From assembly GCA_964016885.1 (NCBI GenBank), contig OZ024740.1:404240001-404304000 (forward strand): DNA of 64,000 nucleotides, written 5' to 3'. Positions within the stretch are counted from its first letter, which is position 1. The number at the start of each line of letters is the position of its first letter. The position numbers and the translations under genes were made by a program. Below, piece by piece: positions 8,833 to 63,503 of the stretch. The DNA comes from Eledone cirrhosa. Lineage: Eukaryota. Under the pieces are notes generated by a model, which was not told the DNA's origin, did no database searches, and saw only the letters and a program-made list of their open reading frames with translations.

Positions 8833-8835
<3 letters not shown>

Positions 8836-9525
8836 CGTTTCTGAATTTAGATTCTTTATCTGAAAACGTGTGTTGAAACCGATATTGTTATACTTTGGGA
8901 GGGTCATGTTGCCAATAAGAAACACACGCACCAGTTGCTTTCACTCCAATTTATTATAAACTAAATTATAAATTTGAAAAATTTATAAATTTCCGGTTGG
9001 TTGGTTCCACAACCGGATGGTTATTCATATATTGTTAAAGTTCTTTCGTCACACATTCTGTGACCTCATCAGTGACCGGGGATTCTTTTCTTTGTTTTGT
9101 GCCTCTCCTTTGTTCTGTCCTACGCCATATTGTTTTTGTGTGTGTTGCGTGCTTAGTTTGCGCATGTGTTACATCCGGGTGTCTGTGTGTGTTTTTATTT
9201 AAATAAACAAATAAAAACACACACAGACACCCGGATGTAACACATGCGCAAACTAAGCACGCAACACACACAAAAACAATATGGCGTATGACAGAACAAA
9301 GGAGAGGCACAAAACAAAGAAAAGAATCCCCGATCACTGATGAGGTCACAGAATGTGTGACGAAAGAACTTTGACAATATATGAACAACCATCCGGTTGT
9401 AGAACCAACCAACCGGAAATTTATAAATTTTTTAAATTTATAATTTAATTTATGATAAATTGGAGTGAAAGCAACTGGTGCGTGTGTTTCTTATTGGCAA
9501 CATGACCCTCCCAAAGTATAACAAT
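8833..9525. mobile_element. Family-B PLE terminal repeats forming a near-perfect fold-back
   Basis: 8882-9199 is inverted versus 9210-9526; minimal HHR-like motifs at 9035-9075(-) and 9334-9374(+); same repeat follows the GIY-YIG fragment at 48730-49118. Confidence 0.8.
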
Positions 9526-9600
9526 ATATATATATATATATATATAGTGAAAGATTGAAGAATAACATGGTCGGCTGTAAAAAAAAAGGGTTTTATTTCA

Positions 9601-12907: not shown

Positions 12908-13675
12908 CTACTGTCCATATAGCTTGAGGAAGGTCTTGACCCTGAGGTGTCTGCATGTCCCGAAGAAGTCGGTTCTGAGGTTTATCAGGCGGCTTCCACC
13001 TCTTAGTATATCGAGGGTCTCGTTCAGACATAGTTTGCATATGCCAGATCCCCCTTTATCGGGTGGTACCTTTCTGATTAGGGACCAGGCCAGAGAGTAC
13101 GGGGTCCTGTCCAGCTTCAGCTTCCAGATCAGGTCGGAAAGAGCCGTAGTTTTCCTTTTGGCCTCCTTATTGAAGGAATGGCGATGGTTATACCAACGAT
13201 CTTTATAGCTCGTTGATGTGGCTCCTATGTAGAGGTGTTCGGAGTTGGGGGTTTTAACCCTACATCCGTATATTAGGTTCCTCTTAAGGCATTCATTACT
13301 AAGGGGACATGTTTCGGGGTTTCTGCAGTTGCAGAGGGTGGTCGACCTATGCGTGCCTAGTGTGGGGTTCCCGTTACGTGTTACATGGTGGTCTTCCCCC
13401 GGGCATGGTGGGGGGTCCCCGGGTCTGTTTGAGTTTCTTGGGTGGGCACTGGGTCCCCCCTTCCTTCCTTCCACATGGTTCTGCTGGGTGCTTATATTGC
13501 CATCTTCTGGTTGTGTGTGTTTTTTAAGCCTACTCCTGTTGATGCTAGCTATGTGTTGTGCCAGATTTCTCGTGGTGGAATACGAGAGCTTCACAGTATG
13601 TCTGTTGAAGATCTTGTGGTATCTATGGTCCCTCGGGAAGCAATTATCAAGTGCTCCAAAGAATGATCGGGCCAA
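12908..13675 (-). CDS. PLE C-terminal fragment, GIY-YIG endonuclease (Nematis-like, tentative)
   Basis: HKIFNRHTVKLSYS...CNCRNPETCPLSNECL...LIYGCRV...YIGATSTSYKDRWYNH...CKLCLNE...CRH. Confidence 0.85.
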   Translation of the reverse strand: MARSFFGALDNCFPRDHRYHKIFNRHTVKLSYSTTRNLAQHIASINRSRLKKHTQPEDGNISTQQNHVEGRKGGPSAHPRNSNRPGDPPPCPGEDHHVTRNGNPTLGTHRSTTLCNCRNPETCPLSNECLKRNLIYGCRVKTPNSEHLYIGATSTSYKDRWYNHRHSFNKEAKRKTTALSDLIWKLKLDRTPYSLAWSLIRKVPPDKGGSGICKLCLNETLDILRGGSRLINLRTDFFGTCRHLRVKTFLKLYGQ

Positions 13676-14083
13676 GCTGTTCTTTACGGCTGCTGAGTAG
13701 GGTGGGTTGTACCACGTGATTTTTCTGCGTCTACTCCTATATGGGTGGGTTTGGGGCGTCGTGAGTTGTTGGAGAGTTGTTGGGTTGCTGGTGGTTCCCG
13801 CATTGTTGCTTCCCCTTTGGGCGCTATGCGTTTTGCTATCTTCACGGCCTGAATCTGTGGGGTGGTCGTTGCCCGCGCTGGGAGATCCACTGTGGGGTGG
13901 TCCCCCCCCCCACGTGTCCTGTTCAAAGTTAGGAGCAGAAATACTATGTATGTATATATATGTATGAATGTATGCATGGATGTATGGATGTATTTATCTG
14001 TATGTATGCGTGTATATATGTATGCATTATGTATAAACTATATAAATTCTGTATAGACTATAGTCTATTTCATACCAATACAC

Positions 14084-18045: not shown

Positions 18046-18061
18046 AATTGGTACAGTATAT

Positions 18062-20465
18062 CAGGCATGTCAAACTGAGGATCCCATAAAGGCCGCATGG
18101 GTCAGATATGTGTTGTCTGAGGGCCGCACATGACAACTAATTGTGCACATTACAACTAATTAAAGTCATTTAATAAAATTTATTGCAGAAAAATTTGTTA
18201 CTTAAATTTAGAAACTTACAATGTACATACAAATGTTTTAGCAACATTCATGAATACAAAGTAATGAAATGGTTTGACAAAAAACTAAAATTTTAAATGG
18301 CAACATATACTTGCAGCTTGCAACAGCAACAAATACATTGTACAAAAATTACAACAGTTCAAAACTGAACATTTATTTGCCACTATTCGACCATTTTAGT
18401 GTTTTGTCCTGGGGCTTGACACCTCTTTTTGTGGACAATTTTTGGTATGTCTGGCTGAAATGTCTGTACAGTTCCGACTTTGATCAGAGATGACAGGTGT
18501 TGATCAGTCAGCCTTGTTCTCTGGGAAGTTTTTGTTAATTTCATGAAGGAAAATAACTGTTCACACACATAGGTAGAACCAAACATTGCCATAATCTTTG
18601 TGGCAAACTTTCTAGAGTTTTTAAACTTTTCAGGAAGGTATGAAAAGAAACCAGGTATCCCCACTTCAAGATATTTTGCTCTGAGTGGAGAATCTGACTG
18701 CATTTCCAATAGTTCCATCTGCAGGCTGTCTTCTGCCTTGGCAACATCTAAGGTGAATGGTGCTGAGAATAATGCAAACTGATGTTCAAAAGTTGAGAAA
18801 TCACTAAATCTTTCCTGAAATTCCTTTGACAACAATTCCAGGTGACTGTCATACATAGCAAAGCTAAGTACAGAATCAGTATTGACAGTGTTTTTCAGCT
18901 CTTTGCACGTAGGAAAATTATCTAAATTTTCATTTGACAACTGTGACTTCCATAAGCTTAGTTTTCTAACAAAGCACTTGATGTCATCATACAACTGAGT
19001 GATGAGTTTGTTTTTACCTTGTAATTTCAAATTAAGATCAGTTAATTGTGCAGTAATATCCACAGCAAAAGCCAAATCTTGGAGCCAACTTTCATCTTTT
19101 ATTTCATCTGTGTTTTGATCTTTCATCTCTAAAAGCATAATTATTTCTTGTCTCAACAAATAGAATCTTTTCAGCACTTTGTCACATAACAACCAGCATA
19201 CTTCTGTGTATAATGGAACATCGGTGAACTGATTATCCCTATCTTCTAATAACTGGCTGAACTGACGGTGGTTGAGAGTACGGCCTCTGATATAGTTCAC
19301 TGTCTTTGTGACCAAGCTAAGCACATGATGCAATTTAAAAATCTTTGAACACAAGTTTTGCTGATAAATAATACAGTGAAAATGTGCAAATAATGAATCT
19401 GGATGCGAGTTTTCTATTTTTGTTCGTAACTTGGCAGCAACACCATTATGTCTGTCAACCACATTCGCTGCACCGTCAGTAGATAAGCATGCACGTTTAC
19501 TCAAATCAAAACCATAGTCATGAAAAACCTGCTCGACCTTCTCAAAGATGTCCTGGCTTGTTATAGTGTCATGCATGGGGACCAGTTCAATCAGTTCTTC
19601 ATAAATATTAAATTGACTATCACAGGCCCTGATGAAGAATGCAAGCTGTGCTATTCCAGTGATGTCAACGGTTTCATCAATAGCAATAGAAAAACATTCA
19701 AACCTTGATGATACAGCCTTCAGCTGTTGTTTCAGATCACCTGACATTTCATCAATCCATTTAGCAACAGTGTTCCAGGTTAATGAAATGTCTTTGAATA
19801 ACTGTGCTTTCTCTGGACATACAATTTCAGCTGTTTTTACAAGGCATTGCTTTACAAAATCTCCTTCGCTGTAAGATTTCCTACTCATGGCGATCATTCG
19901 GCTGAGTTCATAGCTTGCAGTAACGGAAGCGACATTCTCTTCTTGAATTTACATAAAACAGGTCTGTTGCTGTGTCAAGTTAGCCTTCAATCCTTGAGTC
20001 TTGAAAAACACATTTGGCCTTCATATTTATCGTAAGATCGATGGTTTGTTTCATTATTCCTTTTCAAATTGTACTCTTTTGGTGTGGCGATACAATTGTT
20101 GCAGTGTATCTTTCCGTTCACTGTTGTGTAAAATTACTGTAATTTCCGCTTTTCTTGAAACACTCGCCTTCGTTCAATTTCCTTTTTCTCTTAGCTGGAG
20201 GAGCACTAGCCATTTTAAAAGAAAAAACTTTTGAAAATTTGAAAGAAAGTTTTCTGTTTACAACTGTTAATGAGCTGCGCGTGATTCATCGGAAGTTAAA
20301 AGTAGTTGACAAAAATCGCATAAAAGAAACAATCGTATAGAAATTATTTTTAATTTCATATTACGAAGATAAAACATGCTCGCGCTGTAAAAACCTTTGT
20401 GCGGACCGCAGGTGTGCTTGCAAAGGGCCGCATGCGGTCCGCAGGCCGCATGTTTCTTATGTCTG
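18062..20465 (-). mobile_element. hAT DNA transposon (Charlie/SPIN/GTF2IRD2-like)
   Basis: TIRs caggcatgtcaaac (18062) and gtttcttatgtctg (20465); GC-rich subterminal repeats; internal transposase. Confidence 0.85.
18383..19897 (-). CDS. hAT transposase; N-terminus frameshifted (probable start ~20213); probably inactive
   Basis: FSIAIDETVDITGIAQLAFFIR, STDGAANV, HCIIY (CxxH altered), WLQDLAFAVDI, MFGSTYVCEQLFS, RTRLTD. Confidence 0.88.
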   Translation of the reverse strand: MIAMSRKSYSEGDFVKQCLVKTAEIVCPEKAQLFKDISLTWNTVAKWIDEMSGDLKQQLKAVSSRFECFSIAIDETVDITGIAQLAFFIRACDSQFNIYEELIELVPMHDTITSQDIFEKVEQVFHDYGFDLSKRACLSTDGAANVVDRHNGVAAKLRTKIENSHPDSLFAHFHCIIYQQNLCSKIFKLHHVLSLVTKTVNYIRGRTLNHRQFSQLLEDRDNQFTDVPLYTEVCWLLCDKVLKRFYLLRQEIIMLLEMKDQNTDEIKDESWLQDLAFAVDITAQLTDLNLKLQGKNKLITQLYDDIKCFVRKLSLWKSQLSNENLDNFPTCKELKNTVNTDSVLSFAMYDSHLELLSKEFQERFSDFSTFEHQFALFSAPFTLDVAKAEDSLQMELLEMQSDSPLRAKYLEVGIPGFFSYLPEKFKNSRKFATKIMAMFGSTYVCEQLFSFMKLTKTSQRTRLTDQHLSSLIKVGTVQTFQPDIPKIVHKKRCQAPGQNTKMVE

Positions 20466-22298: not shown

Positions 22299-24780
22299 TT
22301 AGTGGCTGGTGTAAGTGGGTGTGGGTGGGTGTGGGTGTTCGTGTGCGTGGGTAGGGGGGATGTTAGTGGTATTAGTTGTGGGGTGGTGGGAGTGGATGTG
22401 TGGGTGAGGGTTAGTGGTAGTAGTAGGGTGTGTGGATAGTGTGAGTGCGTGTATATATGTACCGGTGGGTGTGTGCGTGATGGGGGTAGGGGTATGGAGG
22501 GGGAGGGGGAAATGGGGGATAGTATTGTTAGTTGGGGAGGGTAGTCGGGGGTGGGTGGGGGTGTTAGTATTGTTAGTTGTGGGGTGGGCGGTGAAAGAGG
22601 AGTGTGTTAGTGGTGTTAGTGTGGAATATGTGTGGGGGGGAGGAACAGGGCGGTCAACGGCTAAAGGAATAGGCGTGGCGAGTTCAGGCCGGGGGAGTGT
22701 GGTCTGTAGGGTGAGGATGGTGCGTTGTTCGACCCTGAGGAGGGTGGTGGGTGTTCCGTGGCGTTGGAGTAGACCACAGACTGTGAGGTGGTGCGCGGAA
22801 TGTCCAGGGGAGCCAAAGTGGCGGGCGATGGGGGAACTCCCGCCGAGACGAATATCCCGGAGGTGTTCGGTGAAACGGTCCGCCAGGCGACGCCCAGTCT
22901 GTCCGACGTAGGTTGCGCTACACTCCGTGCAGCGAAGTCCATAGACTAGGTTGGAGGAGGTGCAGCGGAAGGCGTGCCGGACAGAGAGAGAGTGGCCGTT
23001 GGGACCCTGGAAGATGGTGGTGTTGGTGATGTGGGGACAGGTGTTGCAACGAGGCCTGGAACAGAGAAGGGAACCGGGGGGCGTGGGTTGGGGGGGTAGG
23101 GAGCTGGGGACGAGGAGGGTGCGGAGGTTGCGTGTGCGTTTGAAGGAGGGGAGTGGTAGGGATGGGAAGATGTGGGAGGTGGAGGGGTCGGACTGGAGGC
23201 GTCGGAAGAGGCGGAGGATGGTGCGGTGGAGGGCTAGGGTGGAGGGGTGGTAGGTGATGGGGAAGGGGAGACGGTGGGTGGGTGTGCGGTGGTGTGGGAT
23301 GAGGGTGGTGGAGTGGTGGACAGCACGGGCGTGAGTGATGGCGGTGTGGACGGGGGAGGAAGTGGGGGGGCCTCTGCGGATGAAATGGCTGACTAGGGAA
23401 AGGGCCTGGGACTCAAAGTCAGCATCTCGGCTGCAGAGGCGGCGGATCCTGAGGAGTTGGGAGTAGGGAATAGAGTGTTTAGTGTGTGTAGGGTGGGAGG
23501 AGGTGAAGTCGAGGTAGAAGTGGGAGTCGGTAGGTTTGATGAAGGCGGAGGTGATGAGGGAGTGGTGGGAGGGGTCGAAGGCGACGGAGATGTCTAAGAA
23601 GTGGACGTGGGTGATGGAGATAGAGATGGTGAAGTGGAGGGACGGGTGGAAAGAGCAGAAGAAGGAGAGAAAGGAGTCGAGCTGTTCTCGGGTGAGGGTC
23701 ATGGCTCCGATACAGTCGTCGATGTAACGACCGTACAGTTCGGGTGTGGGGCCGGTGTACTGGGCAAAGATTTGGGCCTCAACATGGCCAACGAAAAGGT
23801 TGGCATAGTGTGGGCCCATTCTTGTGCCCATGGCTACCCCCGTGACCTGTTGGTAAAACTCACCTGAGAAGGAGAAACAGTTGAAGGTGAGGACCATCTC
23901 GGCGAGGAGAAGGAGGGGGGGGGGCGAAGTTCGAGGTAGTGCTTGAGGGCACGTAGGCCGTCGGGGTGGGGGATGACGGTATAAAGCGACTTGATATCTA
24001 GGGTGAAGAGGAAGGGCTGTGGGCCGGGTGGGAAGGTGAAGGAGTCTAATAGGAGAAGGGCGTGGTTGGTGTCGGATATGTGGGAGGGGAAGGTGGTGAC
24101 GAGGGGGGCGAGGATGGAGTCAAGAAAGGCGGAAATGAGTTCGGTGGGGCAGTTGCAAGCGGAGACGATGGGGCGACCGGGGTTGTCGGGTTTGTGGAGT
24201 TTGGGGAGAAAGTAGATAGTGGGGGTGCGGGGGTACGGACGATGAGGTGGGAAGCGGTTGGGGGTGGGGGGAGACAAGGTGTTGGAGGGTAGAGGGCGGT
24301 AGAAGAGGGGGTTACGGAGCTGCCTGAGGGCTTCAGCCGTGTAGAGGTCTGCGCGCCACACTACCACCGCGCCTCCCTTGTCCGCCGATTTGATGACGAT
24401 GTCATCTCGGCTACGGAGGGAGCGGATACCGAGGAGTTCGCCCCGTGAGATGTTATTCCGTTTGGAACGGTGGCGGAAGTCGAAGCGATTTACTGCGCTA
24501 CGGCAGGCGACGACGAACGCGTCCAGGGTGCTAAATTTCCCTGGGGCCGGCGTCCAAGACGTTGGTCGTCGACCCAGGGCGAGAAACGGGTCTGGGGCGT
24601 TCGGAGCCGGTGGCGTTTGATCGAAATGTGCCTGTAGCTTCGTGCGTCGCACGAATCGCTCGACTTCCGTTCGGGTGCTGAACTCGTCGCTGTGCGGAGT
24701 GTGGAGTATGAAGCGAAGGCCTCTACTGAGGAGTGAGCGCTCAGGTGCGGAGAGAAGGAGGTCGGGGGGTATGGTGACAA
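22299..24780 (-). pseudogene. PLE RT, zinc finger and GIY-YIG ORF with frameshifts
   Basis: KSADKGG, PGRPIVS, DIKSLYT, GVAMGT, RYIDD, CSRPRCNTC, VYGLRCTEC..YVGQTGRRLADRFTEH. Confidence 0.9.
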
Positions 24781-25298
24781 CAAGTGGTGGGGTTTGGGTG
24801 TGTGAAGGAGGAGGGGAGGGTGTGGTGAAGGGTGAGGTGGAGGGTGGAGATTGGGTAGAGTTGTGGGGTGGGGTGGAGAGTGGTGGACAGGGGTGGGTGG
24901 GGTGGATAGTGGTGGGGAGGGTGTGAGGGGTGGGGAGGGGGGGAGGATTCCGGAGGCTGAGTGTGTATATATGTGGGGGTACGCACGTGTGTGTGGTGTT
25001 TATATGTATTGTTGATATAGGTGGTGTGGTGGGAAAAAATGTTTGTGAGTGTATGTCTGTGGGTAAGTTCCTAAGGTAGTTCCGTAGAGGGTGTGGTGAG
25101 GTGCCGGATATTTTCCTTGTGATGGAATGCCAATCATTGTATGTTTGAATCTAACTGACATGAAAAAACATATATATATATATATGAATAAGGTGAGCCG
25201 AAATCATAGTAGATTCAAATATCACAAAGAGAGAGAGAGGGGGGAATGAGGTGCGACAGAAATGAAACATGGATTACAGGTTAAAATATAGTCTAGAT

Positions 25299-27678: not shown

Positions 27679-27713
<35 letters not shown>

Positions 27714-27717
<4 letters not shown>

Positions 27718-29529
27718 AACCAGTAAGACCCCGACAGCTGAGCTCAAGCCGTTTCGACGGCTAATTCTGGACTAAATGAAAATTTATCCTGGTATTTAAA
27801 TAGCCGATCTTTTCAAGGGGTAATTCCATATATGGTCAAAGTGATTGTCAAAAATCAGTAGTAATTCTGTGGTTGCAAATTAGTAGGGGAGATGGTGGCT
27901 AAACCTGCCAGTAGGAGAAAGAGGGGAGGGGGTGGAGTAGACCCAATCAAGCGTTTGTAGTGCCAGCTACAGCTGGGCATGAGGTCAAAGAAGATACAGG
28001 GGAGGGGGAGGGGGAGGAAGTCGGAACGGTAGGTAGAACAATGGGGGGTAGAAATATATAGGAAAGAAAAAATACTGAGAGTGAAGAAAAAAATGCTGTT
28101 TTACTCCTAAACAAGAAAGATGAACTGGTTACTGCATGTAAACATAGATTGCGTAGGACTTACCTCGCCCTCAAACCCCATAATGACCCGGGGGGGGGGG
28201 GGTAGACTAGGGCTATAACACCCCACTTGCCGATTTTGCAATGGGTAACCCCTGCTTGCCAAGGGAGACGTAAGATCTTCTTTGTATACTTTTATCGCTT
28301 CCTTAATTTCCTTCCTTCCCCCCTCTCTCCTTAGTCCTTCTACCCCAGCTCTTCTCCTTTGTCGGCGTCTTTTCTCGCCAACCCGAGGCTGCCCTTTGGC
28401 CCCTTGTAGCCTTAGTACCCCCACCCCCTCCCCTAGTCTAGGATAGATTTGGCGGACTCCGCCCTTTATAGCAGTTGGTTTAAACCCCGGATACTTGTTC
28501 CCTTTTTCCGACCGCTCCCACTATTCTCTGTGCCCTCTATATTTCTTAGTGGCACTTATGCCTTATTTTTTCGTTTCAGTATTTCTTTCTTCGCTTTTCT
28601 TTTGGGCGGGGTGGATTCTGAATTTATGTTTCCGTATTCTACCTTTACTTCGTACGAACTTTCATGTAGCTTGTTTTAGATCTTTTAGAGTTAGCATTAG
28701 TATATATTTTTCTCGGGACTCAGAATTATTATCTCGTATTAGTTCACTTTGCTGCACTGGGTGGTTGCTGGAATTGTGCCCGGGATGGAAACCTTTATTG
28801 TTTATTTCGTGGTAGTCTCTTTAGTATTTTGGCCCCTTTTGTTGACCCGTCACCGTATCATTTACGTACTTATACCTCTTAAAAGGGTCCTCGCCTATTT
28901 CGTCCCACCTAGTTCTTTTACTTATTTCGTTATTTCTTTATTTCTTTCTTTACTTCTTTCTTTCTTTATTTATTTATTTATTCTAGCCTAACAATAGCTA
29001 GAGACCTAGGTCGTAGAATTTAATTTACTTTACTTTTTTCTTTACACTCATTTGTTTTTCTTTACACTTATTTGCTTTTCTTCACTCTCAGTATTTTTTC
29101 TTTCCTATATATTTCTACCCCCCATTGTTCTACCTACCGTTCCGACTTCCTCCCCCTCCCCCTCCCCTGTATCTTCTTTGACCTCATGCCCAGCTGTAGC
29201 TGGCACTACAAACGCTTGATTGGGTCTACTCCACCCCCTCCCCTCTTTCTCCTACTGGCAGGTTTAGCCACCATCTCCCCTACTAATTTGCAACCACAGA
29301 ATTACTACTGATTTTTGACAATCACTTTGACCATATATGGAATTACCCCTTGAGAAGATCGGCTATTTAAATACCAGGATAAATTTTCATTTAGTCCAGA
29401 ATTAGCCGTCGAAACGGCTTGAGCTCAGCTGTCGGGGTCTTACTGGTTCCTATTACCCACTCTACTACCTCAAGTATTGAGTACTTTGGTGCGTTATGGT
29501 CCACCTGGTTCCTTACCACATTTCCTTCG

Positions 29530-29531
<2 letters not shown>
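27714..29531 (+). mobile_element. Family-A PLE, heavily truncated, with inverted 5' terminal repeat
   Basis: 27716-28100 inverted repeat; 28103 onward LLNKKDELVTACKHRLRRTYL plus full 3' repeat; HHRs at 27728-27821(-) and 29345-29438(+). Confidence 0.88.
29345..29438 (+). ncRNA. Hammerhead ribozyme, U3-A8 core variant (family A)
   Basis: acccc-TTGAGAA-gatcggcta...tagccgtc-GAAAC-ggct tgagctc agct-GTC-ggggt. Confidence 0.75.
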
Positions 29532-29567
<36 letters not shown>

Positions 29568-32019: not shown

Positions 32020-33330
32020 TTAGCCGAAATGTCGACCAGATGCATAATATGTACTTACCCGATAAACTTGTATGTATCGCGTGGGCCATCGAACTGTTCT
32101 TCCAGATTTGGTGTGTCGGGGTTGTGCAGAATTTGTCATGTTTGTGTCGGGCAAAGTTGTTGGTGAGTCTGCTGGAGAAACGGTTGGTAGTGGTGGAAAT
32201 TCCTGTTCTATGAACGCTTTTTTTAAACGATCAATGGAGGCGACATTTCGTTTCCCGTTCAAGTCGAGGACGAAATACTTAGGGCGTTTCTGTATCACCT
32301 TATAGGGCCCAGAATACGGCGGACGAACTTGCGATGGAATACCGTCGTTTCTAACGAAAACATGCGTCCATGTATCGATGTCTTTTGGTATGTGTGAAGT
32401 AACGTGCTGTTGTTTAGGGGTTGAAGGAGACAGATGCGACATCGATGACCGTAAACGGTGCACATATTTTGTAGGGTCTGGAAGTTCTTGTGGCGAAACA
32501 GGAGCGATCATTTGTCCGGGTAGAGTGAGTACGGTGCCATACACCATTTCAGCCGGAGAATGTCCGACTCCCTCCTTAACAGTAGAATGAATCGAATATC
32601 AAGTAGAATGAGTGGGAGGTATTCGAACCAGTTAGTGGAGTCTTCGTAAGCCTTGATAGATGCTTTTAGCTGGCGGTGGAAGCGTTCTACCATGCCGTTA
32701 GCGGCAGGGTGATACGCTGTTGTACGGATGTGTTTGCACCCGAGGAGACGAGTCAGCTCGGTAAATAGATGCGAATCGAACTGACGTCCTCTACCGTAGT
32801 GATGGTCGCGGGTGTGCCGAAACGCGAAACCCAGTGAAACACTAGCGTTTTGGCGACAGTTTCCTCAGTAATATCCGTCAGGGGAAAAGCTTCTGGCCAG
32901 CGAGAAAATCGGTCTACACAAGTGAGAAGATGAGTGTAGTTGTGAGAAGGAGGCAAAGGTCCAACGATGTCTATATGCACATGTTGGAACCGTGCATCAG
33001 GTTTTGCGAAAGAACAGGTCGGGGCTTTGATGTGCCGGTGAATTTTCGCCTTCTGGCACGCGATACAGTTCCTAGCCCATTCGCGGGTGTCCTTGTTGAT
33101 GTTGGGCCGATGTTTCCGGGGCACGTATGGGCGCTCGTGGCCTGTGGAGATATCGCACCAAGTATAACCCGAAGAAGAGGGCAGCGGGCATTGCTGCAAT
33201 TTCAAGGATGATTTCCGGAGTTGCAGCAGTTCCTCGTCATTCTGTTGATCCGCTGCAATCTTCTGGAGGTCGATAGTGGCAGTGGTGTGGATTGCGTTAA
33301 GCTTCATGCGCGATAGGGCATCAGCTGCTG
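32020..33330 (-). pseudogene. Gypsy pol fragment (integrase), frameshifted and cut by a family-B PLE
   Basis: [61 protein letters not shown]. Confidence 0.9.
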
Positions 33331-33335
33331 AGAAA

Positions 33336-33844
33336 GACGCATCACAAATCACAGAGGCAATAAACATAAATGAACTCCATCCAAAATTAAATAGAAAACA
33401 TGAATGGAATAGCAACATCACAACTTACAATTAAGGACAAAATGAAAACACACACTCACATAGAACAAACAACCAACCAGTAACATGTAAATAAACAAAT
33501 AAAAACACACACAGACACCCGGATGTAACACATTCGCAAACTAAGCACACAACACACACAAAAACAAGATGGCGTAGGACAGAACAAAGGAGAGGCACAA
33601 AACAAAGAAAAGAATCCCCACTCACTGAAGAGGTCAGAGAATGTGTGACGAAAGAACTTTGACAATATATAAACAACCATCCGGTTGTGGAACCAACCAA
33701 CCAACCGGAAACTTATAATAAATTGAAGTGAAAGCAACTGGTGCGTGTGTTTCTTATTGGCAACATGACCCTCCCAAAGTATAACTATATCGGTTTCAAC
33801 ACACGTTTTCAGATAATGAATCTTGCTAAACAAATTCAGAAACG

Positions 33845-36925: not shown

Positions 36926-36932
36926 ACATGAT

Positions 36933-37797
36933 GTGAAGGCGCATGGCTTAGTGGTTAGAGCATTGGACTTGCAATCGAAAGGTTGTGAGTTCAATTCTCG
37001 GACCGGGTGATGTGTTGTTTCCTTGAGCAAGACACTTTATTTCACGTTGCTCCAGTTTACTCAGCTGTAGAAATGAGATGATAGGACTGGGGTCCCAATC
37101 ATTAAATCACCCAAGACACCTCCAACGAGATATACCTTGGAGGAGGCCAGCTAAACCTGCATAGATGTGAGCTGTCACACACACACTTTATTTCACATTG
37201 CTTCTTCTACCTAGAGTTGCGACCGATAGATAGTATTAGCAATTGGAAAGACCAATGGAAACATTATTTCCTCGGTCCGATTTGACGAAAGTCGATCGAC
37301 TGTCGATATATATATATATACGCTCTCACTATGGACACCTCTGGTGTCCTCGGTTTTCAGCTGGGCCGGATTTAATGAGTGGGGAGAAAGGGAGCAATTG
37401 TCCCTGCCTCCCACTGTGGAGGGGCTCACCAGTAACGGCCGTAGCAATTTATTTGTGCCCTCTGCTGGGATTTTTAGTTTTATCCCTTTGACAACAGGAA
37501 CTATATTTTTAACAAAAAGTATTTAATGTCCTTACTGTGTGTGTGTGTGTGTGACAGCTCACATCTATGCAAGTTTAGCTGGCCTCCTACAAGGTATATT
37601 TCGTTGGAGGTATCTTGGGTAATTTAATGATATGGACCCCAGTCCTATCATCTCATTTCTACATCTGAGTAAACTGGAGTAACGTGAAATAAAGTGTCTT
37701 GCTCAAGGAAACAACACATCACCCGGTCCGAGAATTGAACTCACAACCTTTCGATTGTAAGCCCAATGCTCTTAACCACTAAGCCATGCGCCTTCAC
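36933..37797. mobile_element. Inverted pair of tRNA-derived SINEs (36933-37190 +, 37537-37797 -)
   Basis: gaaggcgcatggcttagtggttagagc...gagttcaattc...ccttgagcaagacacttt; third copy at 58442-58625. Confidence 0.8.
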
Positions 37798-37939
37798 ATT
37801 TTACTGCGGCAAAATTCATCACATTTTCTTAATTTTAGAGACAACAGGTAATCAGAACAATGTTCTAATAAAAAATATTTGATGTCGCTATGTAAAGTGG
37901 TTGTGCCTGTATTGCAAAAATTAATGCGCTAAAGTGGTT

Positions 37940-41340: not shown

Positions 41341-41423
<83 letters not shown>

Positions 41424-41426
<3 letters not shown>

Positions 41427-44400
41427 AACCAGTAAGACCCCGACGGCTGAGCTCAAGCCGTTTCGACGGCTAATTCTGGACTAAATGAAAATTTATCCTG
41501 GTATTTAAATAGCCGAGCTTCTCAAGGGGTAATTCCATATATGGTCAAAGTGATTGTCAAAAGGTAGTAGTAATTCTGTGATTGCAAATTAGTAGGGGAG
41601 ATGGCGGCTAAACCTGCCAGTAGGAGAAAAAGGGGAGGGGTGGAGTAGACCCAATCATGCGTTGGTAGTGCCAGCTACAGCTGGGCATGAGGTCAAAGAA
41701 GATACTGGGGAGGGGGAGGGGAGGAAGTCGAAACGGTAGGTAGAACAACGAGGGGTAAAAAATATATATATGAAAGAAAAAATACTGAGAGTGATGAAAA
41801 GCGAATAAGTGTAAAGAAAAAAGAGTATAAAAGCAAGTTCTACGACCTAAGTCTCTAGCTATTGTTAGGCTAGAAAAATAAATAAATAAAGAAAGAAAGA
41901 AATAAAGAAATAACGAAATAAGTAGATAAACTAGGTGGGACGGAATAGGCAAGGACCCTTTAAAGAGGTATAAGTACGTAAATCATACGGTGACGGGTCA
42001 ACAAATGGGGCCAAAATACTAAAGAAACTACCACGAAATAAATAATAAAGGTTTCTATCCCGGGCACCAGGCCAGCAACCACCCAGTGCAGCAGAGTAAA
42101 CTAGTACTAGATAATAATTCTGAGTCACGAAAAGGTACCGCCGCGCTACGAAAGATCTTATACAAGCTACATGAAAGTTCGTACGAAGTAAAGGTAGAAT
42201 ACGGAAAAATAAATTCAGAATCCACCCCGCCCAAAAGAAAAGAGAAGAAAGAAATACTGAAACGAGAAAATAAGGCATAAGTGCCACTAAGAAATATAGA
42301 AGGCACGGAAAATAGGGGAGCGGTCGGAAAAGGGGGGCAAGTATCCGGAGTCTAACACAACTGCTATAAAAAGCAGAGTCCGCCAAATCTATCATAGACT
42401 AGGGGAAGAGGTGGGGGTACTGAGGCTACACGGGGCCAAAGGGCAGCCTCGGGTGGGCGAGAAAAGACGCCGACAAAGGAGAAGAGCTGGGGTAGAAGGA
42501 CTAAGGAGGGATGGGGCGAAGAGGGAAATAAAGGAAGCGATAAAAGAATAAAAAGAAGATCTTACGTCTCCCTTGGCAAGCAGGGGTTACCCATTGCAAA
42601 ATCGGCAAGTGGGGTATTATAGCCCTAGTCTACCCCCCCCCCCCCCCGGTCATTATGGGGTTTGAGGGTGAGGTAAGTCCTACGCAATCTATGTTTACAT
42701 GCAGTAACCAGTTCATCTTTCTTGTTTAGGAGTTGGTCCGTCGAAAACAGCATTTGTAAAGTTTCCTCCGAGCATAAATTGCACGGACGGCGTCCTCCCG
42801 TGTAAGAATTGGCTCTGGACAGTAATCTCCAAGTGAGATCATAGGTGATGTTGTTGTCCTTGAGGTCCCATATGTGGCCCGAAAGTGTAGTGGCGTGACG
42901 CCGGGCCGGGTATCGGAAGGTATGTCTGTGTTGGTATAGCCGGGTCTTGAAGTCACATGCGGTTAGTCCTATATAAGCTTTTTTGGAGGTATCCGTCCTC
43001 ACGTTGCACTGGTAGATCACATTACGGTCTCTGCATCTATTGTCGAGTGGGCAAATGGATCTATCCGGACAGTTGCACCTCCTGGTCGGCTCTCCACTGC
43101 TATTTAGGTTATTTCTTCCATCGGGGTTAAGTTTTTTGTTGTTAGAGGAGACGATGTTTTGTGCGAAGTTAGGTGTAGTGCTGTAAGAGAGTTTGATGGT
43201 ATTTTGTTAATTATGTTGTGGTAGCGGTGTTGTAGTGGGAAGTGTTTTTCAATGAGCCTAAAGAATAGTTTCCCGATGGGAGTTGTCACCTCTGCGTTGT
43301 GGGGAGGATTGAACCATGTTACATTGCGTGAGCGGCGGTGTCTCCTGCTGGTTCCGCTAATGGGAGCTGGACAGTAGGATATTTCCTCCCGGAAACCACT
43401 CCGCTTGAGGGCCTGGTTGTAATAAGGCGCATGTTCATCGAATATCCGCTCATCAGCTGACAAACGGGATATGCGGAGGGAGATGTTTTTGACCAGGTTG
43501 TTGGTGATGTTCCTAGGATGGTTTGATCGGCGGTGGATGTAGTGCAGGTTGTCATTAGGTTTCCTGTATGGGTAGTACAGGTCGTTTTCGAGGTCGAGGG
43601 TCACGTCCAGGAAGTTTACTCGGGTCAGGGACGTTTGTAGGGTTATTTTAAATCCCCAGTCACGGAAGAAGCTGATTAATTTTTTCCGGACCCGATCTGT
43701 ACTACTGGGGTTGTACCCTTTAAGGGTAAGGAGCCCATCATCACGGTACAATCCACCACCGAATGCAGGAAACATATCGGTGAGTTTGGCTATTAGGAAT
43801 AATCCTATAAGATCTGTGACCTCCGCCGAATCCGTGGCGCCCATGCTGACGTCGAAGGGTGAGTCGGGAGCTCTTTTTATCCATTTAGAGTCGTCAAAGA
43901 GTAAGACTGTCTTCCTGGCGTGGAGGATGATTTTTCTTTCCTGGTCGGTGATGGGCACAAGTGTTTCGGCGAAGTCCAAGGCGGCAGTAAGTAGCGGTAA
44001 GGTGATTGAAGCATAGTAGCTCTCTATGTCGAACTGTATGAATTTAGTGTCTCGTTTATCATCCATATTGCTGAACCATGAGATTACTTCCTGGGTGTTG
44101 ATCCATAGGCTAAGCCGGGCGTGTTGCTTGACTTTTGGTATCACGCGGTCTAGGATTTTTTTGCTGATTCTCCCTATGTCGGACTTCGTTGGGTTAATAA
44201 GCCTGATAGAGGGTTTACGGTCAAAATCGGATTTATGGTCCTTCAGTGTGAAGTATGGTGTCCGTGGGTCTAGGGGTTCCGTGCGGTCGGCGACCCCGAG
44301 GCTGGAGGTAATTTGTTGTCCATCTCGATTTATGTCCTCGATGCAAGAGTGGTTGGCCTTTTTATAGGTGGAGTTTAGGCTGCTCCTGATCAGTGTGTGG

Positions 44401-45356
44401 TATCTGTCAGGGTTGACAAAGTATAGGTTCCCAGTTTTATCCGAATGCACTATGATGTCATTGGTGTTATCATACTCGTACGAACTTTCATGTAGCTTGT
44501 ATAAGATCTTTCGTAGCGCGGCGGTACCTTTAGAGTTAGCATTAGTATTTTTTTTTTTCGGGACTCAGAATTATTATCTAGTACTAGTTTACTTTGCTGC
44601 ACTGGGTGGTTGCTGGCCTGGTGCCCGGGATAGAAACCTTTATTATTTATTTCGTGGTAGTTTCTTTAGTATTTTGGCCCCATTTGTTGACCCGTCACCG
44701 TATGATTTACGTACTTATACCTCTTTAAAGGGTCCTTGCCTATTCCGTCCCACCTAGTTTATCTACTTATTTCGTTATTTCTTTATTTATTTCTTTATTT
44801 CTTTCTTTCTTTATTTATTTATCTATCTAGCCTAACAATAGCTAGAGACTTAGGTCGTAGAACTTGCTTTTATACTCTTTTTTCTTTACACTTATTCGCT
44901 TTTCATCACTCTCAGTATTTTTTCTTTCATATATATATTTTTTACCCCTCGTTGTTCTACCTACCGTTTCGACTTCCTCCCCCTCCCCCTCCCCAGTATC
45001 TTCTTTGACCTCATGCCCAGCTGTAGCTGGCACTACCAACGCATGATTGGGTCTACTCCACCCCCTCCCCTTTTTCTCCTACTGGCAGGTTTAGCCACCA
45101 TCTCCCCTACTAATTTGCAATCACAGAATTACTACTGACTTTTGACAATCACTTTGACCATATATGGAATTATCCCTTGAGAAGCTCGGCTATTTAAATA
45201 CCAGGATAAATTTTCATTTAGTCCAGAATTAGCCGTCGAAACGGCTTGAGCACAGCCGTCGGGGTCTTACTGGTTCCTATTACCCACTCTACTACCCTAA
45301 GTATTGAGTACTTTGGTGCGTTATGGTCCACCTGGTTCCTTACCACATTTCCTTCG

Positions 45357-45360
<4 letters not shown>
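41424..45360 (-). mobile_element. Family-A Penelope-like element, 5'-truncated, with inverted terminal repeat
   Basis: 3' repeat 41424-42624(-), ORF 42625-44470(-), inverted repeat 44476-45360(+); HHRs at 41437-41530(-) and 45172-45265(+); (TA)n flanks. Confidence 0.92.
42625..44470 (-). pseudogene. PLE RT and GIY-YIG endonuclease (Nematis-like, tentative), one frameshift near 43200
   Basis: SDKTGNLY, TLKDHK, RLINPTKSDIG, FDIESYY, MGATDSAE, LYRDDGL, FLDVTLDL; IYQCNV...YIGLTACDFKTRLYQH...CNLCSEE. Confidence 0.92.
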
Positions 45361-45390
<30 letters not shown>

Positions 45391-57078: not shown

Positions 57079-57195
57079 AATAAAACTCCGGATAAACATA
57101 TACCGTTGAGTGCTTGACATCTGTTATATATAAGTCAGGTGATTCTAAATCAACTAACTCGTTTTCATTGAACAAATATATATTTATATATATAT

Positions 57196-57228
<33 letters not shown>

Positions 57229-57404
57229 CATAATAGAATATAAAAGAAAAACGAACACAGGCATATACATATATGTGTTCAAATCGTAAGGGACTGGATT
57301 CGCTAAGGTGAAAAGAATACTAACTATAGACAATAGGGTTTGCTTGTCTCAATTTAAGAAAAAATTAAGAAAATAAATACAAACCGGAATTGTGGTAACT
57401 ACCA

Positions 57405-57482
57405 ATCACCCAGACAACTTGGTGTTGTTTCGCAATTTTAATTGTGAATAGAAATATCAATTCAAGCTCATCAGTGGGTGAT
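57405..57482 (-). ncRNA. Hammerhead ribozyme in a PLE-type terminal repeat (57230-57500)
   Basis: Reverse complement: atcaccca-CTGATGA-gc...gc-GAAAC-aac accaa gtt-GTC-tgggtgat. Confidence 0.8.
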
Positions 57483-58085
57483 GAATTAGTATCCTAGACA
57501 CTTCTAAGTATATTAAGAAACTGAATAGTGTGCTATTTTGAGTTCCTAATATATTAATATGTGTAGAAGAAAACACAGTAAATTCTGCGTCTAAAATTAC
57601 GAGGGTAGATTTCACTACAAATGTTTTATATATTTAAACTGAAGCGTTACAGTAGGGTACAAGTTTTCTTATACATACCGTATCAATAACGATTTCATCT
57701 CTCGGACAGACTAAATATTTAATCTGTTTCGCCCTGAAAAAATTGTGCTTGTAACAAATAATCCTTAAGCATTTCGTCAGCGAGAGATTAGATTAAATGA
57801 TACAGAACACCCTTAACAAGAAACTCACGGAAGTAGATTCCTCGCGCGTTGAAAGTCATACGTGGTGCGAGTGGTTATGCTACAAATAATAGCCTAATTA
57901 CACTCATTTTTATAAGCTCACCAGATAAGGAGCCGAAATACAAATAAAATATAGAGTTATTAATTTTAGACGCAGAATTTACTGTGTTTACTTCTACACA
58001 TATTAATATTATAATGCTCAGTATTTATACTTTGAGCTTGTTAATTGCAGGGTATCTATATGAGTTAATAACTCTATATTTTATT

Positions 58086-59110: not shown

Positions 59111-59163
<53 letters not shown>

Positions 59164-59165
<2 letters not shown>

Positions 59166-60752
59166 CGAAGGAAATGTGGTAAGGAACCAGATGGACCATA
59201 ACGTACCAAAGTACTCAATACTTAGGGTAGTAGAGTGGGTAATAGGAACGAGTAGGACCCCGACGGCTGAGCTCAAGCCGTTTCGACGGCTAATTCTGGA
59301 CTAAATGAAATTTTTTATCCTGGTAAATGAATAGCCGAGCTTCTCAGGGGGTAATTCCATATATGGTAAAAGTGATTGTCACAAGGATTGGTCAAAAGTT
59401 TTTTGTTGAGACATAATTCTATCATGGCATTTTGTGGAAGGAAGGGGTAGCTGAACTTGTCAGTAGAAGAAAGAGGGAGAGGGAGTAGAGGAAACCCAGT
59501 CGTGCGTTGAAAGTGACAACTACAGCAGAATCCTAAGGATAAGAGGTCAAGAGAAGTATACTAGGGAGGGGGAGGGGGGAGGAAGTCGAAACAATAAGTA
59601 ACTCTATATGGAGTAAATATATAGAAAAATAAGAATGTTAAAAATATTTAAAAAAACAATTTCTGGTTACTATTCCCTTACCACAATCATCAAATCTCTC
59701 ACTGGTACTGCTAAACTATAGAAATGGTTACCAAACGACAACCTGCACTACATCCACCGCCGGTCAAACCATCCTAGAAACATCACCAATAACCTGGTTA
59801 AAAGCATCTCCCTCCGCATATCTCGTTTGTCCGCTAATGAGCAGATATTCGAGGAACATACGCCTTATTACAACCAGGCCATCAAGCGGAGTGGCTTCCG
59901 GGAGGAAATATCCTACTGTCCAGCTTCCATTAGCGGAACCAGCAGGCGATACCGCCGCTCACGCAACGTTACATGGCTCAATCCTCCCCACAACGCCGAG
60001 GTAACAACACCTATCGGGAAAATCTTCTTTAGGCTCATCGAAAAACACTTCCCACTACAACACCGCTACCACAACATAATCAACAAAAATACCATCAAAC
60101 TCTCCTACAGTACCACACCTAACTTTGCACAAAACATCCTCTCCTCTAACAACAAAAAACTCAACCCTTATGGAAGAAATAACCTAGATAGCAGTGGAGA
60201 GCCGACCAGGAGGTGTAACTGTCCTGTTGGATCCATTTTCCCCCTCGACAACAGATGCAGAGATCGTAATGTGATCTACCAGTGCAACGTGAGGACGGAC
60301 ACCTCCAACAAAGCTTATATAGGATTAACCGCTTGTGACTTCAAGACCCGACTATACCAACACAGACATACTTTCCGAAACCCGGCCCGGCGTCACGCCA
60401 CTACACTTTCGGGCCACATCCGGGACCTCAAAGATAACAATATAACCTATAATCTCACTTGGAGCTTACTGTCCAGAGCCAACTCTTACACGGGAGGACG
60501 CCGTCCGTGTAACTTATGCTCGGAGGAAACATTACAAATGCTGTTTTCGATGGACCAACTCCTAAACAAGAAAGACGAACTGGTAACTGCATGCAAACAC
60601 AGTTTGGGGGTAGACAAGGGCTGTAACACCCCACTTGCCGACTTTGTAATGGGTAACCCCTGCTTACAAAGGTAGACGTAAGATATTCTTATATATTTTT
60701 TATCATTTCCCCTATATTTCCTTCTTCCCCTCCATCCCTTCCTAGTCCTTCC
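59164..60752 (+). mobile_element. Family-A PLE fragment: inverted terminal repeat (59164-~59640, -) plus RT end/GIY-YIG (59730-60752, +)
   Basis: ORF 59827-60675 is closely similar to 42625-43560; HHR at 59257-59352(-) with core CTGAGAA. Confidence 0.9.
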
Positions 60753-61143
60753 AGGTGTTTCCTCGAAAACCAGTATGACTCTAAAAACCGGTTTGTCTGT
60801 GTGTTTACATACAGAATAGCTGGACACTCACAGTAAAGTGTCCAGTGAAAAACTCGGTACATCTACGTATGTACACGTGTGTGTATTCATATGCATACTA
60901 GTATTTCAGTATACATATGTGGATGTACATTTTTAACTTAATTGTTTAAGCGTCAGTCATACAAAAGTGAGTTACAAACGAAACGAAATTTAATTTCGTT
61001 TCGTTATTTGTTTTTATCGTCTCCGCTGAACCGGTACGTACTCACGCTCTATGCAAATTAGTCTGCCCACTACTAATTTTCATAGAAAAAGTATATAACG
61101 ATATGTGCTTTTACGATTCTCTAGAAAGGCCGGAAGATAGGTA

Positions 61144-61188
61144 AATATTGCTGATGAGATGTAACAACATCGAAACTAGTCCAATATT
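61144..61188 (+). ncRNA. Type I hammerhead ribozyme (array unit 1), predicted cleavage after 61181
   Basis: aatattg-CTGATGA-gatgt aaca acatc-GAAAC-ta-GTC-caatatt; stem I extends over 61117-61210. Confidence 0.9.
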
Positions 61189-61609
61189 CCTTGTCTGGCT
61201 TTCTGGAGAATAGAGGAAAGGTGTTTCCTCGAAAACCAGTATGACTCTAAAAACCGGTTTGTCTGTGTGTTTACATACAGAATAGCTGGACACTCACAGT
61301 AAAGTGTCCAGTGAAAAACTCGGTACATCTACATATGTACACGTGTGTGTATTCATATGCATACTAGTATTTCAGTATACATATGTGGATGTACATTTTT
61401 AACTTAATTGTTTAAGCGTCAGTCATACAAAAGTGAGTTACAAACGAAACGAAATTTAATTTCGTTTCGTTATTTGTTTTTATCGTCTCCGCTGAACCGG
61501 TACGTACTCACGCTCTATGCAAATTAGTCTGCCCACTACTAATTTTCATAGAAAAAGTATATAACGATATGTGCTTTTACGATTCTCTAGAAAGGCCGGA
61601 AGATAGGTA

Positions 61610-61654
61610 AATATTGCTGATGAGATGTAACAACATCGAAACTAGTCCAATATT
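61610..61654 (+). ncRNA. Type I hammerhead ribozyme (unit 2)
   Basis: Identical to unit 1. Confidence 0.9.
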
Positions 61655-62075
61655 CCTTGTCTGGCTTTCTGGAGAATAGAGGAAAGGTGTTTCCTCGAAA
61701 ACCAGTATGACTCTAAAAACCGGTTTGTCTGTGTGTTTACATACAGAATAGCTGGACACTCACAGTAAAGTGTCCAGTGAAAAACTCGGTACATCTACAT
61801 ATGTACACGTGTGTGTATTCATATGCATACTAGTATTTCAGTATACATATGTGGATGTACATTTTTAACTTAATTGTTTAAGCGTCAGTCATACAAAAGT
61901 GAGTTACAAACGAAACGAAATTTAATTTCGTTTCGTTATTTGTTTTTATCGTCTCCGCTGAACCGGTACGTACTCACGCTCTATGCAAATTAGTCTGCCC
62001 ACTACTAATTTTCATAGAAAAAGCATATAACGATATGTGCTTTTACGATTCTCTAGAAAGGCCGGAAGATAGGTA

Positions 62076-62120
62076 AATATTGCTGATGAGATGTAACAAC
62101 ATCGAAACTAGTCCAATATT
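62076..62120 (+). ncRNA. Type I hammerhead ribozyme (unit 3)
   Basis: Identical to unit 1. Confidence 0.9.
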
Positions 62121-62541
62121 CCTTGTCTGGCTTTCTGGAGAATAGAGGAAAGGTGTTTCCTCGAAAACCAGTATGACTCTAAAAACCGGTTTGTCTGTGT
62201 GTTTACATACAGAATAGCTGGACACTCACAGTAAAGTGTACAGTGAAAAACTCGGTACATCTACATATGTACACGTGTGTGTATTCATATGCATACTAGT
62301 ATTTCAGTATACATATGTGGATGTACATTTTTAACTTAATTGTTTAAGCGTCAGTCATACAAAAGTGAGTTACAAACGAAACGAAATTTAATTTCGTTTC
62401 GTTATTTGTTTTTATCGTCTCCGCTGAACCGGTACGTACTCACGCTCTATGCAAATTAGTCTGCCCACTACTAATTTTCATAGAAAAAGCATATAACGAT
62501 ATGTGCTTTTACGATTCTCTAGAAAGGCCGGAAGATAGGTA

Positions 62542-62586
62542 AATATTGCTGATGAGATGTAACAACATCGAAACTAGTCCAATATT
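62542..62586 (+). ncRNA. Type I hammerhead ribozyme (unit 4)
   Basis: Identical to unit 1. Confidence 0.9.
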
Positions 62587-63125
62587 CCTTGTCTGGCTTT
62601 CTGGAGAATAGAGGAAAGGTGTTTCCTCGAAAACCAGTATGACTCTAAAAACCGGTTTGTCTGTGTGTTTACATACAGAATAGCTGGACACTCACAGTAA
62701 AGTGTCCAGTGAAAAACTCGGTACATCTACATATGTACACGTGTGTGTATTCATATGCATACTAGTATTTCAGTATACATATGTGGATGTACATTTTTAA
62801 CTTAATTGTTTATATATATATATATATTCATATATATATATAGATATGTATTCATATATATATATATATATATACATATATATTCATATATATATATACA
62901 TTCATATATATATATACATATATATTCATATATATATATACATTCATATATATATATACATATATATTCATATATATATATGTGTGTACATTTATATATA
63001 TATATATAAGTAAGAATATTTTCGAAACAGCGAGCGAGATTGAAATTAGAAATATAAGGATGCCATGTGCGCTGTTTTATGCATTTTATATATAGCATAC
63101 TTTGATGTGTCTAGGATACTAATTC

Positions 63126-63203
63126 ATCATCCACTGATGAGCTTGGATTGGTATTTCTATTCACAATTAACATTGCGAAACAACACCAAGTTGTCTGGGT
63201 GAT
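63126..63203 (+). ncRNA. Hammerhead ribozyme in a PLE-type terminal repeat (63108-63385)
   Basis: atcatcca-CTGATGA-gc...gc-GAAAC-aac accaa gtt-GTC-tgggtgat; inverted homolog of 57405-57482. Confidence 0.8.
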
Positions 63204-63411
63204 TGGTAGTTACCACAATTCCGGTTTGTATTTTTTTTTTTTTTTTTTCTTAAATTGAGACAAGCAAACCCTATTGTCTATAGTTAGTATTCTTTTCACC
63301 TTAGCGAATCAGGTCCCTTACGATTTGAACACATGTATATATATGTCTGTGTTCGTTTTTCATTTATATTCTATATTCTATTATTATATATATATTTATA
63401 CATTCATATAC

Positions 63412-63503
<92 letters not shown>

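Follow-up and report, generated by a model that had tools for sequence, protein, structure and literature searches.

Architecture of the composite locus

The window, i.e., the whole stretch of 64,000 nucleotides of Eledone cirrhosa DNA that we analysed, contains a composite of Penelope element (PLE) and retrozyme sequence between two (TA)n tracts. Both the left target tract (59113-59164) and the right (TA)n-rich target tract (62811..63008) were delimited from the sequence and with TRF. Against the left tract lies the 'long' (tailed) 3' end of the left arm of a family-A2, Hydra-type PLE, which consists of 3' UTR and pLTR on the minus strand (59162..59729). The arms invert at about 59729/59730, and the right arm (59730..60752, plus strand) contains the end of the RT, a CxCX5C linker and the GIY-YIG endonuclease, followed by approximately 80 bp of 3' UTR. 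This arm is joined to a plus-strand retrozyme arm of 4.42 x 466 bp (60753..62812), which runs from unit position 38 to a 'short' end at unit position 233, the units being numbered from the hammerhead cleavage site (61182 = 1). The succession of (TA)n, inverted family-A arm, ORF end, 466-bp array and (TA)n described in an earlier note on this DNA is real, as sequence and TRF agree. The inverted family-A repeat of that note is also present, but instead of ending at about 59636 it reaches 59729 and includes the full long end.

The PLE was further said to break off early in its 3' UTR, with the array adjoining in the same sense. Both points hold, but the continuation that had been expected past the break is not that of subfamily A2. 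Since the A2 3' UTR goes on with ATCCCAG, a single base (A, 60753) is common to both sides of the junction at 60752/60753. Compared with the nearest subfamily copy (L097), 583 bp of PLE sequence are absent at this point (98 bp of UTR and 486 bp of repeat up to the short end), and the exact junction 27-mer occurs only once in the genome. The PLE part belongs to subfamily A2, unlike the other family-A copies in the window, and shares 87% identity with 42495-43560 and 86% identity with intact young family-A copies. Three insertions in the window served as comparators: a complete two-armed family-A insertion (27713..29533) and a two-armed family-A insertion with most of the ORF (41422..45362), both with the short end on the left and the long end on the right, and a two-armed family-B PLE terminal insertion (8833..9527) with the long end on the left and the short end on the right. 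A family-B PLE is also the partner to which the retrozyme is joined at another locus, L035.

A putative hammerhead-like motif lies in the family-A pLTR of the left arm (59257..59352, minus strand). The hammerhead previously ascribed to the family-A 3' repeat can be retained for its stems and its GAAA/GUC parts but not for a canonical core: the box reads CUGAGAA or UUGAGAA in place of CUGANGA, and the canonical-core scan missed the motif. In the array, the core scan identified a hammerhead of the canonical type I in every unit, its stem III being short and palindromic, namely at 61144..61188, with predicted cleavage after 61181, and, one per unit, at 61610-61654, 62076-62120 and 62542-62586 (all on the plus strand). 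At Rfam gathering scores, the window scan returned no hammerhead family, and its only match was a tRNA at 36944.

The 466-bp unit as a retrozyme

The 466-bp unit has a low GC content (36%), is repeated 4.42 times in tandem with 99% matches between units (TRF) and contains no ORF longer than 60 aa. Folded as a circle, its monomer gave an MFE of -154.5 compared with -94.5 +/- 5.3 for shuffled sequences, none of which was as low (0/60; z = -11.3). Copies of the unit were found on many contigs of the 3.0-Gb genome, with 99-100% identity among the best 40 of 343 candidates, and exact matches to the 37-nt hammerhead number 1,584 genome-wide. When full copies of families A and B were compared with the unit, only chance-level matches of 11-22 nt to their repeats (pLTR) were seen. 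Type I hammerheads with a palindromic stem III are described as the canonical metazoan form, active as dimers (PMC4209133), and the hammerheads in the window fit this description. Tandem, low-GC, non-coding and self-paired units with a canonical type I hammerhead are likewise described for metazoan non-LTR retrozymes (Cervera and de la Pena 2020, PMC7229834), in which the units measure 150-450 bp, the 466 nt found here being just above this range. All sequence features that could be tested here identify the 466-nt unit as a dispersed, young, protein-free non-LTR retrozyme.

Retrozyme arms are up to about 16 units long. In some of the long arms (L058, L054, L041 and L075) variants recur with a period of 2, 4 or 6, a pattern that is compatible with multimeric circles but could also come from unequal exchange, and that we regard as suggestive only. 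No RNA run appeared among the public runs listed for the sequence.

PLE families A and B

Family A includes intact young members with open frames of 784 codons, which are 99.6-99.7% identical to each other. Its protein carries RWR for RWK, DKT, a CxCX5C linker, and CxxC and CxH around conserved E and N; it has a C-terminal GIY-YIG and no CCHH, and the family targets (TA)n. By motifs alone, family A matches a Hydra-clade PLE. As Pfam and PDB sequence searches gave no match for the family-A protein, this identity rests on the motifs together with homologues that are unnamed proteins of about 700 aa. Motifs and (TA)n targets are shared with the Hydra-clade PLEs of Craig et al. (2021, PMC8557442), from which family A differs by its non-canonical hammerhead core. 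In family B, open frames of 830-882 codons encode both RT and GIY-YIG. A Neptune or Nematis type is suggested by the DKS motif, the CX4CxxC linker and the C-C-H-H residues of this family.

Retrozyme insertions end at two internal positions

Retrozyme DNA was sampled in 104 stretches (about 102 loci), made up of the 37 best-scoring ones, 27 taken in positional order and 40 picked for an apparent single end. Retrozyme arms end either at unit position 302 (long) or at 228/233 (short), 69-74 nt apart and in both cases far from the hammerhead cleavage site. Genome-wide, at least 2,591 long and 1,098 short ends abut TA, compared with 0 in the controls. A looser second pattern for the short end gave 1,108, scarcely higher; since it added so few, the surplus of long ends probably comes from very short or variant short arms, and tiny second arms were seen at L032, L158, L161, L167 and L181. 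TA-like sequence adjoins 113 of the 119 classified ends. The ends show 1-3 nt of TA pairing, and the insertions carry no poly(A) and no repeat tail of their own. These genome-wide copies and ends support the view of the earlier note that the ribozyme-bearing array is a dispersed repeat, internally primed at (TA)n and copied over several unit lengths.

We then considered how the ends are combined. Among 65 inverted arm pairs, five had an atypical end and four ran off the stretch, and all 56 two-armed insertions in which both ends were classifiable paired a long with a short end (56/56). The rule is not absolute, because two short+short insertions were confirmed among targeted picks from the genome-wide end list. 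The two arms of one insertion are a median of 0.21% apart compared with 1.4% to other loci (50 pairs), and they share subtype markers, suggesting that both are usually derived from a single template or a single source. The long+short pairing is likewise seen in families A and B. The spacing of the two ends is 82 nt in family A and 52-61 nt in family B and, set beside that of the retrozyme, picks out no helper. We also observed a shared 8-9-nt motif near the long ends, each of the two families matching a single strand of the hairpin that precedes position 302; this observation was made post hoc and was not used as evidence.

Relative age of the two parts

To date the composite, we aligned 31 ORF-end copies and 23 left-arm copies of the PLE, taken from the best 40 of 3,801 and of 2,710 candidates, respectively. 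The ORF-end segment of the window differs from the majority at 25 positions over 1,021 bp, nine of them private, and about 45 bp near 60615, close to where the ORF ends, are deleted in this copy alone, while the left arm shows 11 differences over 560 bp, four of them private. Private substitutions in the window PLE thus total 13 over 1,581 bp, and its nearest relatives among the best 40 scored are 2.9% (right arm) to 3.4% (left arm) away. Even the closest pair among the 31 A2 copies from the best 40 of 3,801 is at least 2.4% apart. All private coding changes of the window PLE are non-synonymous (7/7). This resembles the private changes in the copy set as a whole (236 N:91 S, versus 158 N:251 S for changes common to several copies) and looks like neutral decay.

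The array has only 4 variant sites (3 events) over 2,060 bp. Equal rates in the PLE part and the array were rejected (binomial p 0.002-0.006), a test that would weaken to an estimated p of about 0.02-0.1 if the array recently expanded from one unit. The PLE part is some 4-5 times more decayed than the array, which speaks against the single chimeric insertion that the earlier note had proposed for the locus. CpG decay as the source of the excess substitutions in the PLE was rejected, as none of the 13 is a CpG transition. Base composition differs between the parts, with 40-47% GC in the PLE and 36% in the array. Arm-versus-arm divergence was 1.1-3.8% in 10 of 11 A2 loci from the ORF search (the eleventh, at 10%, is probably no pair and was set aside). 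By comparison, a young A copy gave 0.14% and three B copies gave 0.2-1.2%. A decayed source copy of the window PLE could be absent from the assembly or could lie among the unscored copies.

Fusions at other loci

Inner junctions with non-TA DNA were present in 7 of the 104 stretches. None of the 104 has a direct family-A junction with the retrozyme, the association that had been anticipated at other arrays; the count of chimeras rests on these stretches, and about 39 further listed orphan-end loci fall outside it. The partner is a family-B PLE at L035, a family-C-like UTR at L154, another PLE RT whose ORF has a stop codon at L177, an unclassified two-armed repeat without its outer 200 bp at L070, a non-PLE repeat with a (TACA)n end at L155 and sequence without PLE match at L047 and L159. 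At L070 and L177 the palindrome centre and about 40 bp of the second arm are kept, and for both loci a deletion that ran into a neighbour is the simplest reading. Within 600 bp of 122 retrozyme outer ends, family-A PLEs occurred 12 times and family-B PLEs 9 times, and L090 presents the unfused state, in which an A2 copy is separated from a complete retrozyme insertion by 100 bp of (TA)n. Given such common PLE neighbours and the arrangement at L090, fusion by deletion is frequent enough, and geometrically sufficient, to account for the window.

L035 (G000:C4, about 377,869,585-377,871,626) is the sole age-matched PLE-retrozyme chimera found in the 104 stretches. Its order is (TA)n, family-B arm, blunt join, retrozyme arm, (TA)n, with the B arm antisense from its short end and the retrozyme arm sense to its long end. 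This is the geometry of the ordinary two-arm form, without an extra template switch. Four copies elsewhere, on other contigs, match the 504-bp ORF end of the B arm exactly, and the identity of each of the 40 scored copies rounds to 100%; against L192, the arm shows 1 mismatch and 4 gaps over about 1,170 bp. Over 868 bp, the retrozyme arm agrees with the family majority at every position (0 differences). These features suggest a true heterologous chimera at L035, although, for a single locus, a rapid deletion between two new neighbours may also be responsible.

A two-level account of the retrozyme and the window

On balance, we favour an account with two levels, a PLE-mobilised retrozyme family and a two-step composite at the window. 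For the family, we consider it very likely that the 466-nt retrozyme is non-autonomous and owes its mobility to a PLE RT/GIY-YIG protein acting in trans. The PLE enzyme would nick both strands of a (TA)n tract, whereupon one 3'-OH would prime on retrozyme RNA at position 302 and the other at 228/233, via 1-3 nt of TA pairing. Each cDNA would read past the hammerhead sites, over as many as about 16 units, so that the template would be either circular or a multimer left uncleaved. The two cDNAs would be joined tail-out. To the observed end positions, pairing, flanks and arm identity, this model adds a presumed enzyme, a presumed circularity of the RNA and presumed self-cleavage.

For the window, the probable origin is a two-step composite, in which an older family-A2 PLE and a younger retrozyme insertion were joined by deletion. 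The family-A2 PLE would have inserted at the site first, and the retrozyme would then have inserted in its right-hand (TA)n. A deletion of at least 583 bp, at or after the retrozyme insertion, would have taken the PLE end together with the (TA)n between the two insertions and, had one been present, a left retrozyme arm; target-site resection or palindrome instability may have caused it. A counterpoint to the two-step reading is that the ends in the window are complementary (PLE long and retrozyme short) and the parts lie in the same sense, for which the chance odds are about even.

This counterpoint would be explained if the composite arose in one twin-primed event, with family-A RNA as the template of the top strand, primed at the long site, and retrozyme RNA as that of the bottom strand, primed at the short site and copied for 4.4 rounds before a switch to family-A RNA. 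The complementary ends, the common sense, the 1-nt shared base and the (TA)n on each side are all as such an event would leave them; L035 looks like a true chimera, and family A has intact young members. We nevertheless consider a single event unlikely at this locus: the PLE part and the array are mismatched in age, the PLE part is just 86% identical to the intact young subfamily, and no A2 pair among the 31 copies from the best 40 of 3,801 is closer than 2.4%. It would also need an extra internal template switch, unlike L035, and the family-A junction has no counterpart in the 104 other stretches.

A second alternative concerns the family, and holds that the unit spreads without PLEs, through another LINE RT or through satellite amplification at the DNA level with repair at fragile (TA)n, so that its contacts with PLEs reflect co-targeting. 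The unit is indeed without sequence homology to the A or B repeats, the periodic variants of long arrays could stem from unequal exchange and the arm at L155 is fused to a non-PLE repeat. This mode of spread is improbable, however, in view of the fixed long+short pairing, which is of the same kind as in two PLE families, of ends that lie distant from the hammerhead cleavage site with no poly(A) or own repeat tail, and of a tail signature that has been called unique to PLEs (PMC11167929). Finally, an assembly error between two nearby repeats is very improbable, since the junction is unique and in non-simple sequence and palindromic arrays of many kilobases are resolved elsewhere in the assembly, even if inverted and tandem repeats are hard to assemble and no listed contig of four public runs bridges 60752/60753 (these contigs are about 60 bp in repeats and hence uninformative).

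The two-level account thus keeps one half of what the earlier note had concluded about the helper. PLE machinery as the mobiliser of the ribozyme repeat gains strong support from the end anatomy genome-wide, whereas family A as the identified helper is not supported. Family A is not singled out because it provides none of the junctions in the 104 stretches, L035 involves family B and fusions to other neighbours, non-PLE repeats among them, occur. The helper may be a young family-A element, a young family-B element or a member of PLE families beyond those surveyed.

Comparison with known systems and implications

Among the closest known systems is PAc, a Poseidon PLE from Anolis, whose protein nicks both strands of AT-rich DNA in vitro and starts RT at two internal sites that match the genomic tail (Frangieh et al. 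2024, PMC11167929). In the same work, hammerhead cleavage is dispensable for PAc insertion. The spacing of the two sites in Eledone exceeds the 30-40 bp of the PAc tail both for the retrozyme and for families A and B, and, unlike in PAc, the ends show 1-3 nt of TA pairing and the template would be a non-coding parasite acting in trans. Non-autonomous Chlamys PLEs such as MRC1 (PMC8557442) are likewise non-coding and form PLE-type head-to-tail insertions. They share 3'-end sequence with their helper, in contrast to the 466-bp unit, which shares none with family A or B and is a hammerhead-processed repeat by its predicted features.

For metazoan retrozymes, PLEs were named as a 'strong candidate' helper, and insertion of multimeric cDNA was predicted, by Cervera and de la Pena (2020, PMC7229834). 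The arrays described there are simple and have TSDs, whereas those found here are two-armed, tail-out insertions with fixed long and short ends in (TA)n. PMC7761336, too, names PLEs as candidates. In a preprint, Li, Clavereau and Pollet (2026, 10.64898/2026.07.22.740005) propose that animal retrozymes, with units of 51-972 bp, are non-autonomous partners of PLEs, on the basis of pLTR homology and of co-occurrence, both in Xenopus; by their own statement, the mechanism is still to be settled. The link described here is instead an integration footprint, with no pLTR homology to family A or B. In the literature searched, with subscription papers and bioRxiv supplements outside the search, we did not find two-site ends of the PLE type described for any retrozyme insertion.

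It is tempting to speculate further, on grounds that we place somewhat short of probable, that a PLE RT/endonuclease dimer loads two different RNAs, primed on opposite strands of one (TA)n, one at a long and one at a short site. A hammerhead circle without homology to its helpers would then exploit this by presenting a PLE-like pair of start sites, possibly to helpers from two PLE families that are unrelated to each other, Hydra-type A and CCHH-type B. The locus L035 (and, with lower probability, the window) might then be a direct genomic trace of a helper and its parasite acting in a single reaction, and the periodic variants might reflect rolling-circle copying of multimeric circles.

The question of what moves animal retrozymes has been open since 2020, and the case for PLEs has been built on shared hammerheads, co-occurrence and, in 2026, pLTR homology. 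The evidence added here is of a mechanistic kind, in that ends in their thousands map to two fixed internal positions and are paired in PLE fashion. The window itself counsels caution, as PLE-retrozyme fusions can arise via shared (TA)n targeting and deletion, and both parts of a fusion should therefore be dated before it is read as evidence for a helper. The fixed ends, distant from the ribozyme cut site, give exact predicted RT start sites, and since intact young candidates of families A and B reside in the same genome and an in vitro PLE assay has been published, the identity of the helper is directly testable.

PLE-retrozyme chimera and intact PLE copies

Among the junctions found between Penelope-like elements (PLEs) and the retrozyme, the strongest candidate for a single event is a genome stretch, L035, in which a family-B PLE arm with the short end is joined to a retrozyme arm with the long end (L035:1699-3850; G000:C4:377869498-377871650). 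(TA)n tracts lie on either side of this chimera, and its two arms are matched in age. Young and intact copies of family A were found in L194-L196 and at G000:C2:51277250-51285619; the young copies have identical open frames of 784 codons, and some are arranged in tandem with a period of 3,528 bp. In these copies the tail region, from short to long end, precedes the first Met and is in the same frame as it. Words from the junction region of the window (60300-61218) were present in 16 public runs labelled as other organisms at a share of 7-25%, which may come from the PLE part, the retrozyme part or both.

Retrozyme arrays and a related family

In the long retrozyme arms of six stretches (L041, L054, L058, L075, L039 and L033), unit variants repeat with a period of 2, 4 or 6, and in L048 and L058 some variants are common to both arms. 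These sequence patterns suggest that the templates were multimeric. The insertion at G000:C1:5738091-5752748 (L145 and L162) is a single one of about 14.6 kb, and in L083 an array with 90% identity extends over at least 7.5 kb, both of its ends lying outside the stretch. The retrozyme insertion at L064:2860-5890 lies in DNA other than (TA)n; a 7-bp sequence (ATTATAA), apparently duplicated, borders it on both sides and may show the nick stagger.

A second retrozyme family, related to the 466-bp one, occurs at L077:1-1090, L048:9300-9870, L169:2310-2830 and L039:1-500. Its unit of about 520 bp contains a TA run and is about 80% identical to the 466-bp unit across positions 325-382 of the latter. 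It carries a type I hammerhead of its own, the palindromic start of stem III being identical in both families, and a hairpin precedes its TA-abutting end.

Other elements in the window

An inverted pair with a tRNA-like head (36931-37799; Rfam tRNA match at 36944-37001) is probably a tRNA-derived SINE. Two minus-strand translations are labelled by resemblance: a 521-codon frame (18386-19948) resembles a hAT-type transposase, and a 223-codon fragment (32756-33424) looks integrase-like. The fusion locus is enclosed by an inverted repeat pair (57176-57511 and 63097-63435), each member adjoining (TA)n and containing a hammerhead-like core (57428-57474 and 63134-63180), which is probably another terminal repeat of PLE type. 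Minus-strand ORF fragments of PLE-like RT/GIY-YIG at 12911-13993, 15705-18136 and 22302-25150 represent at least two families besides those studied, and are candidates for the helper whose protein would mobilise the retrozyme in trans.
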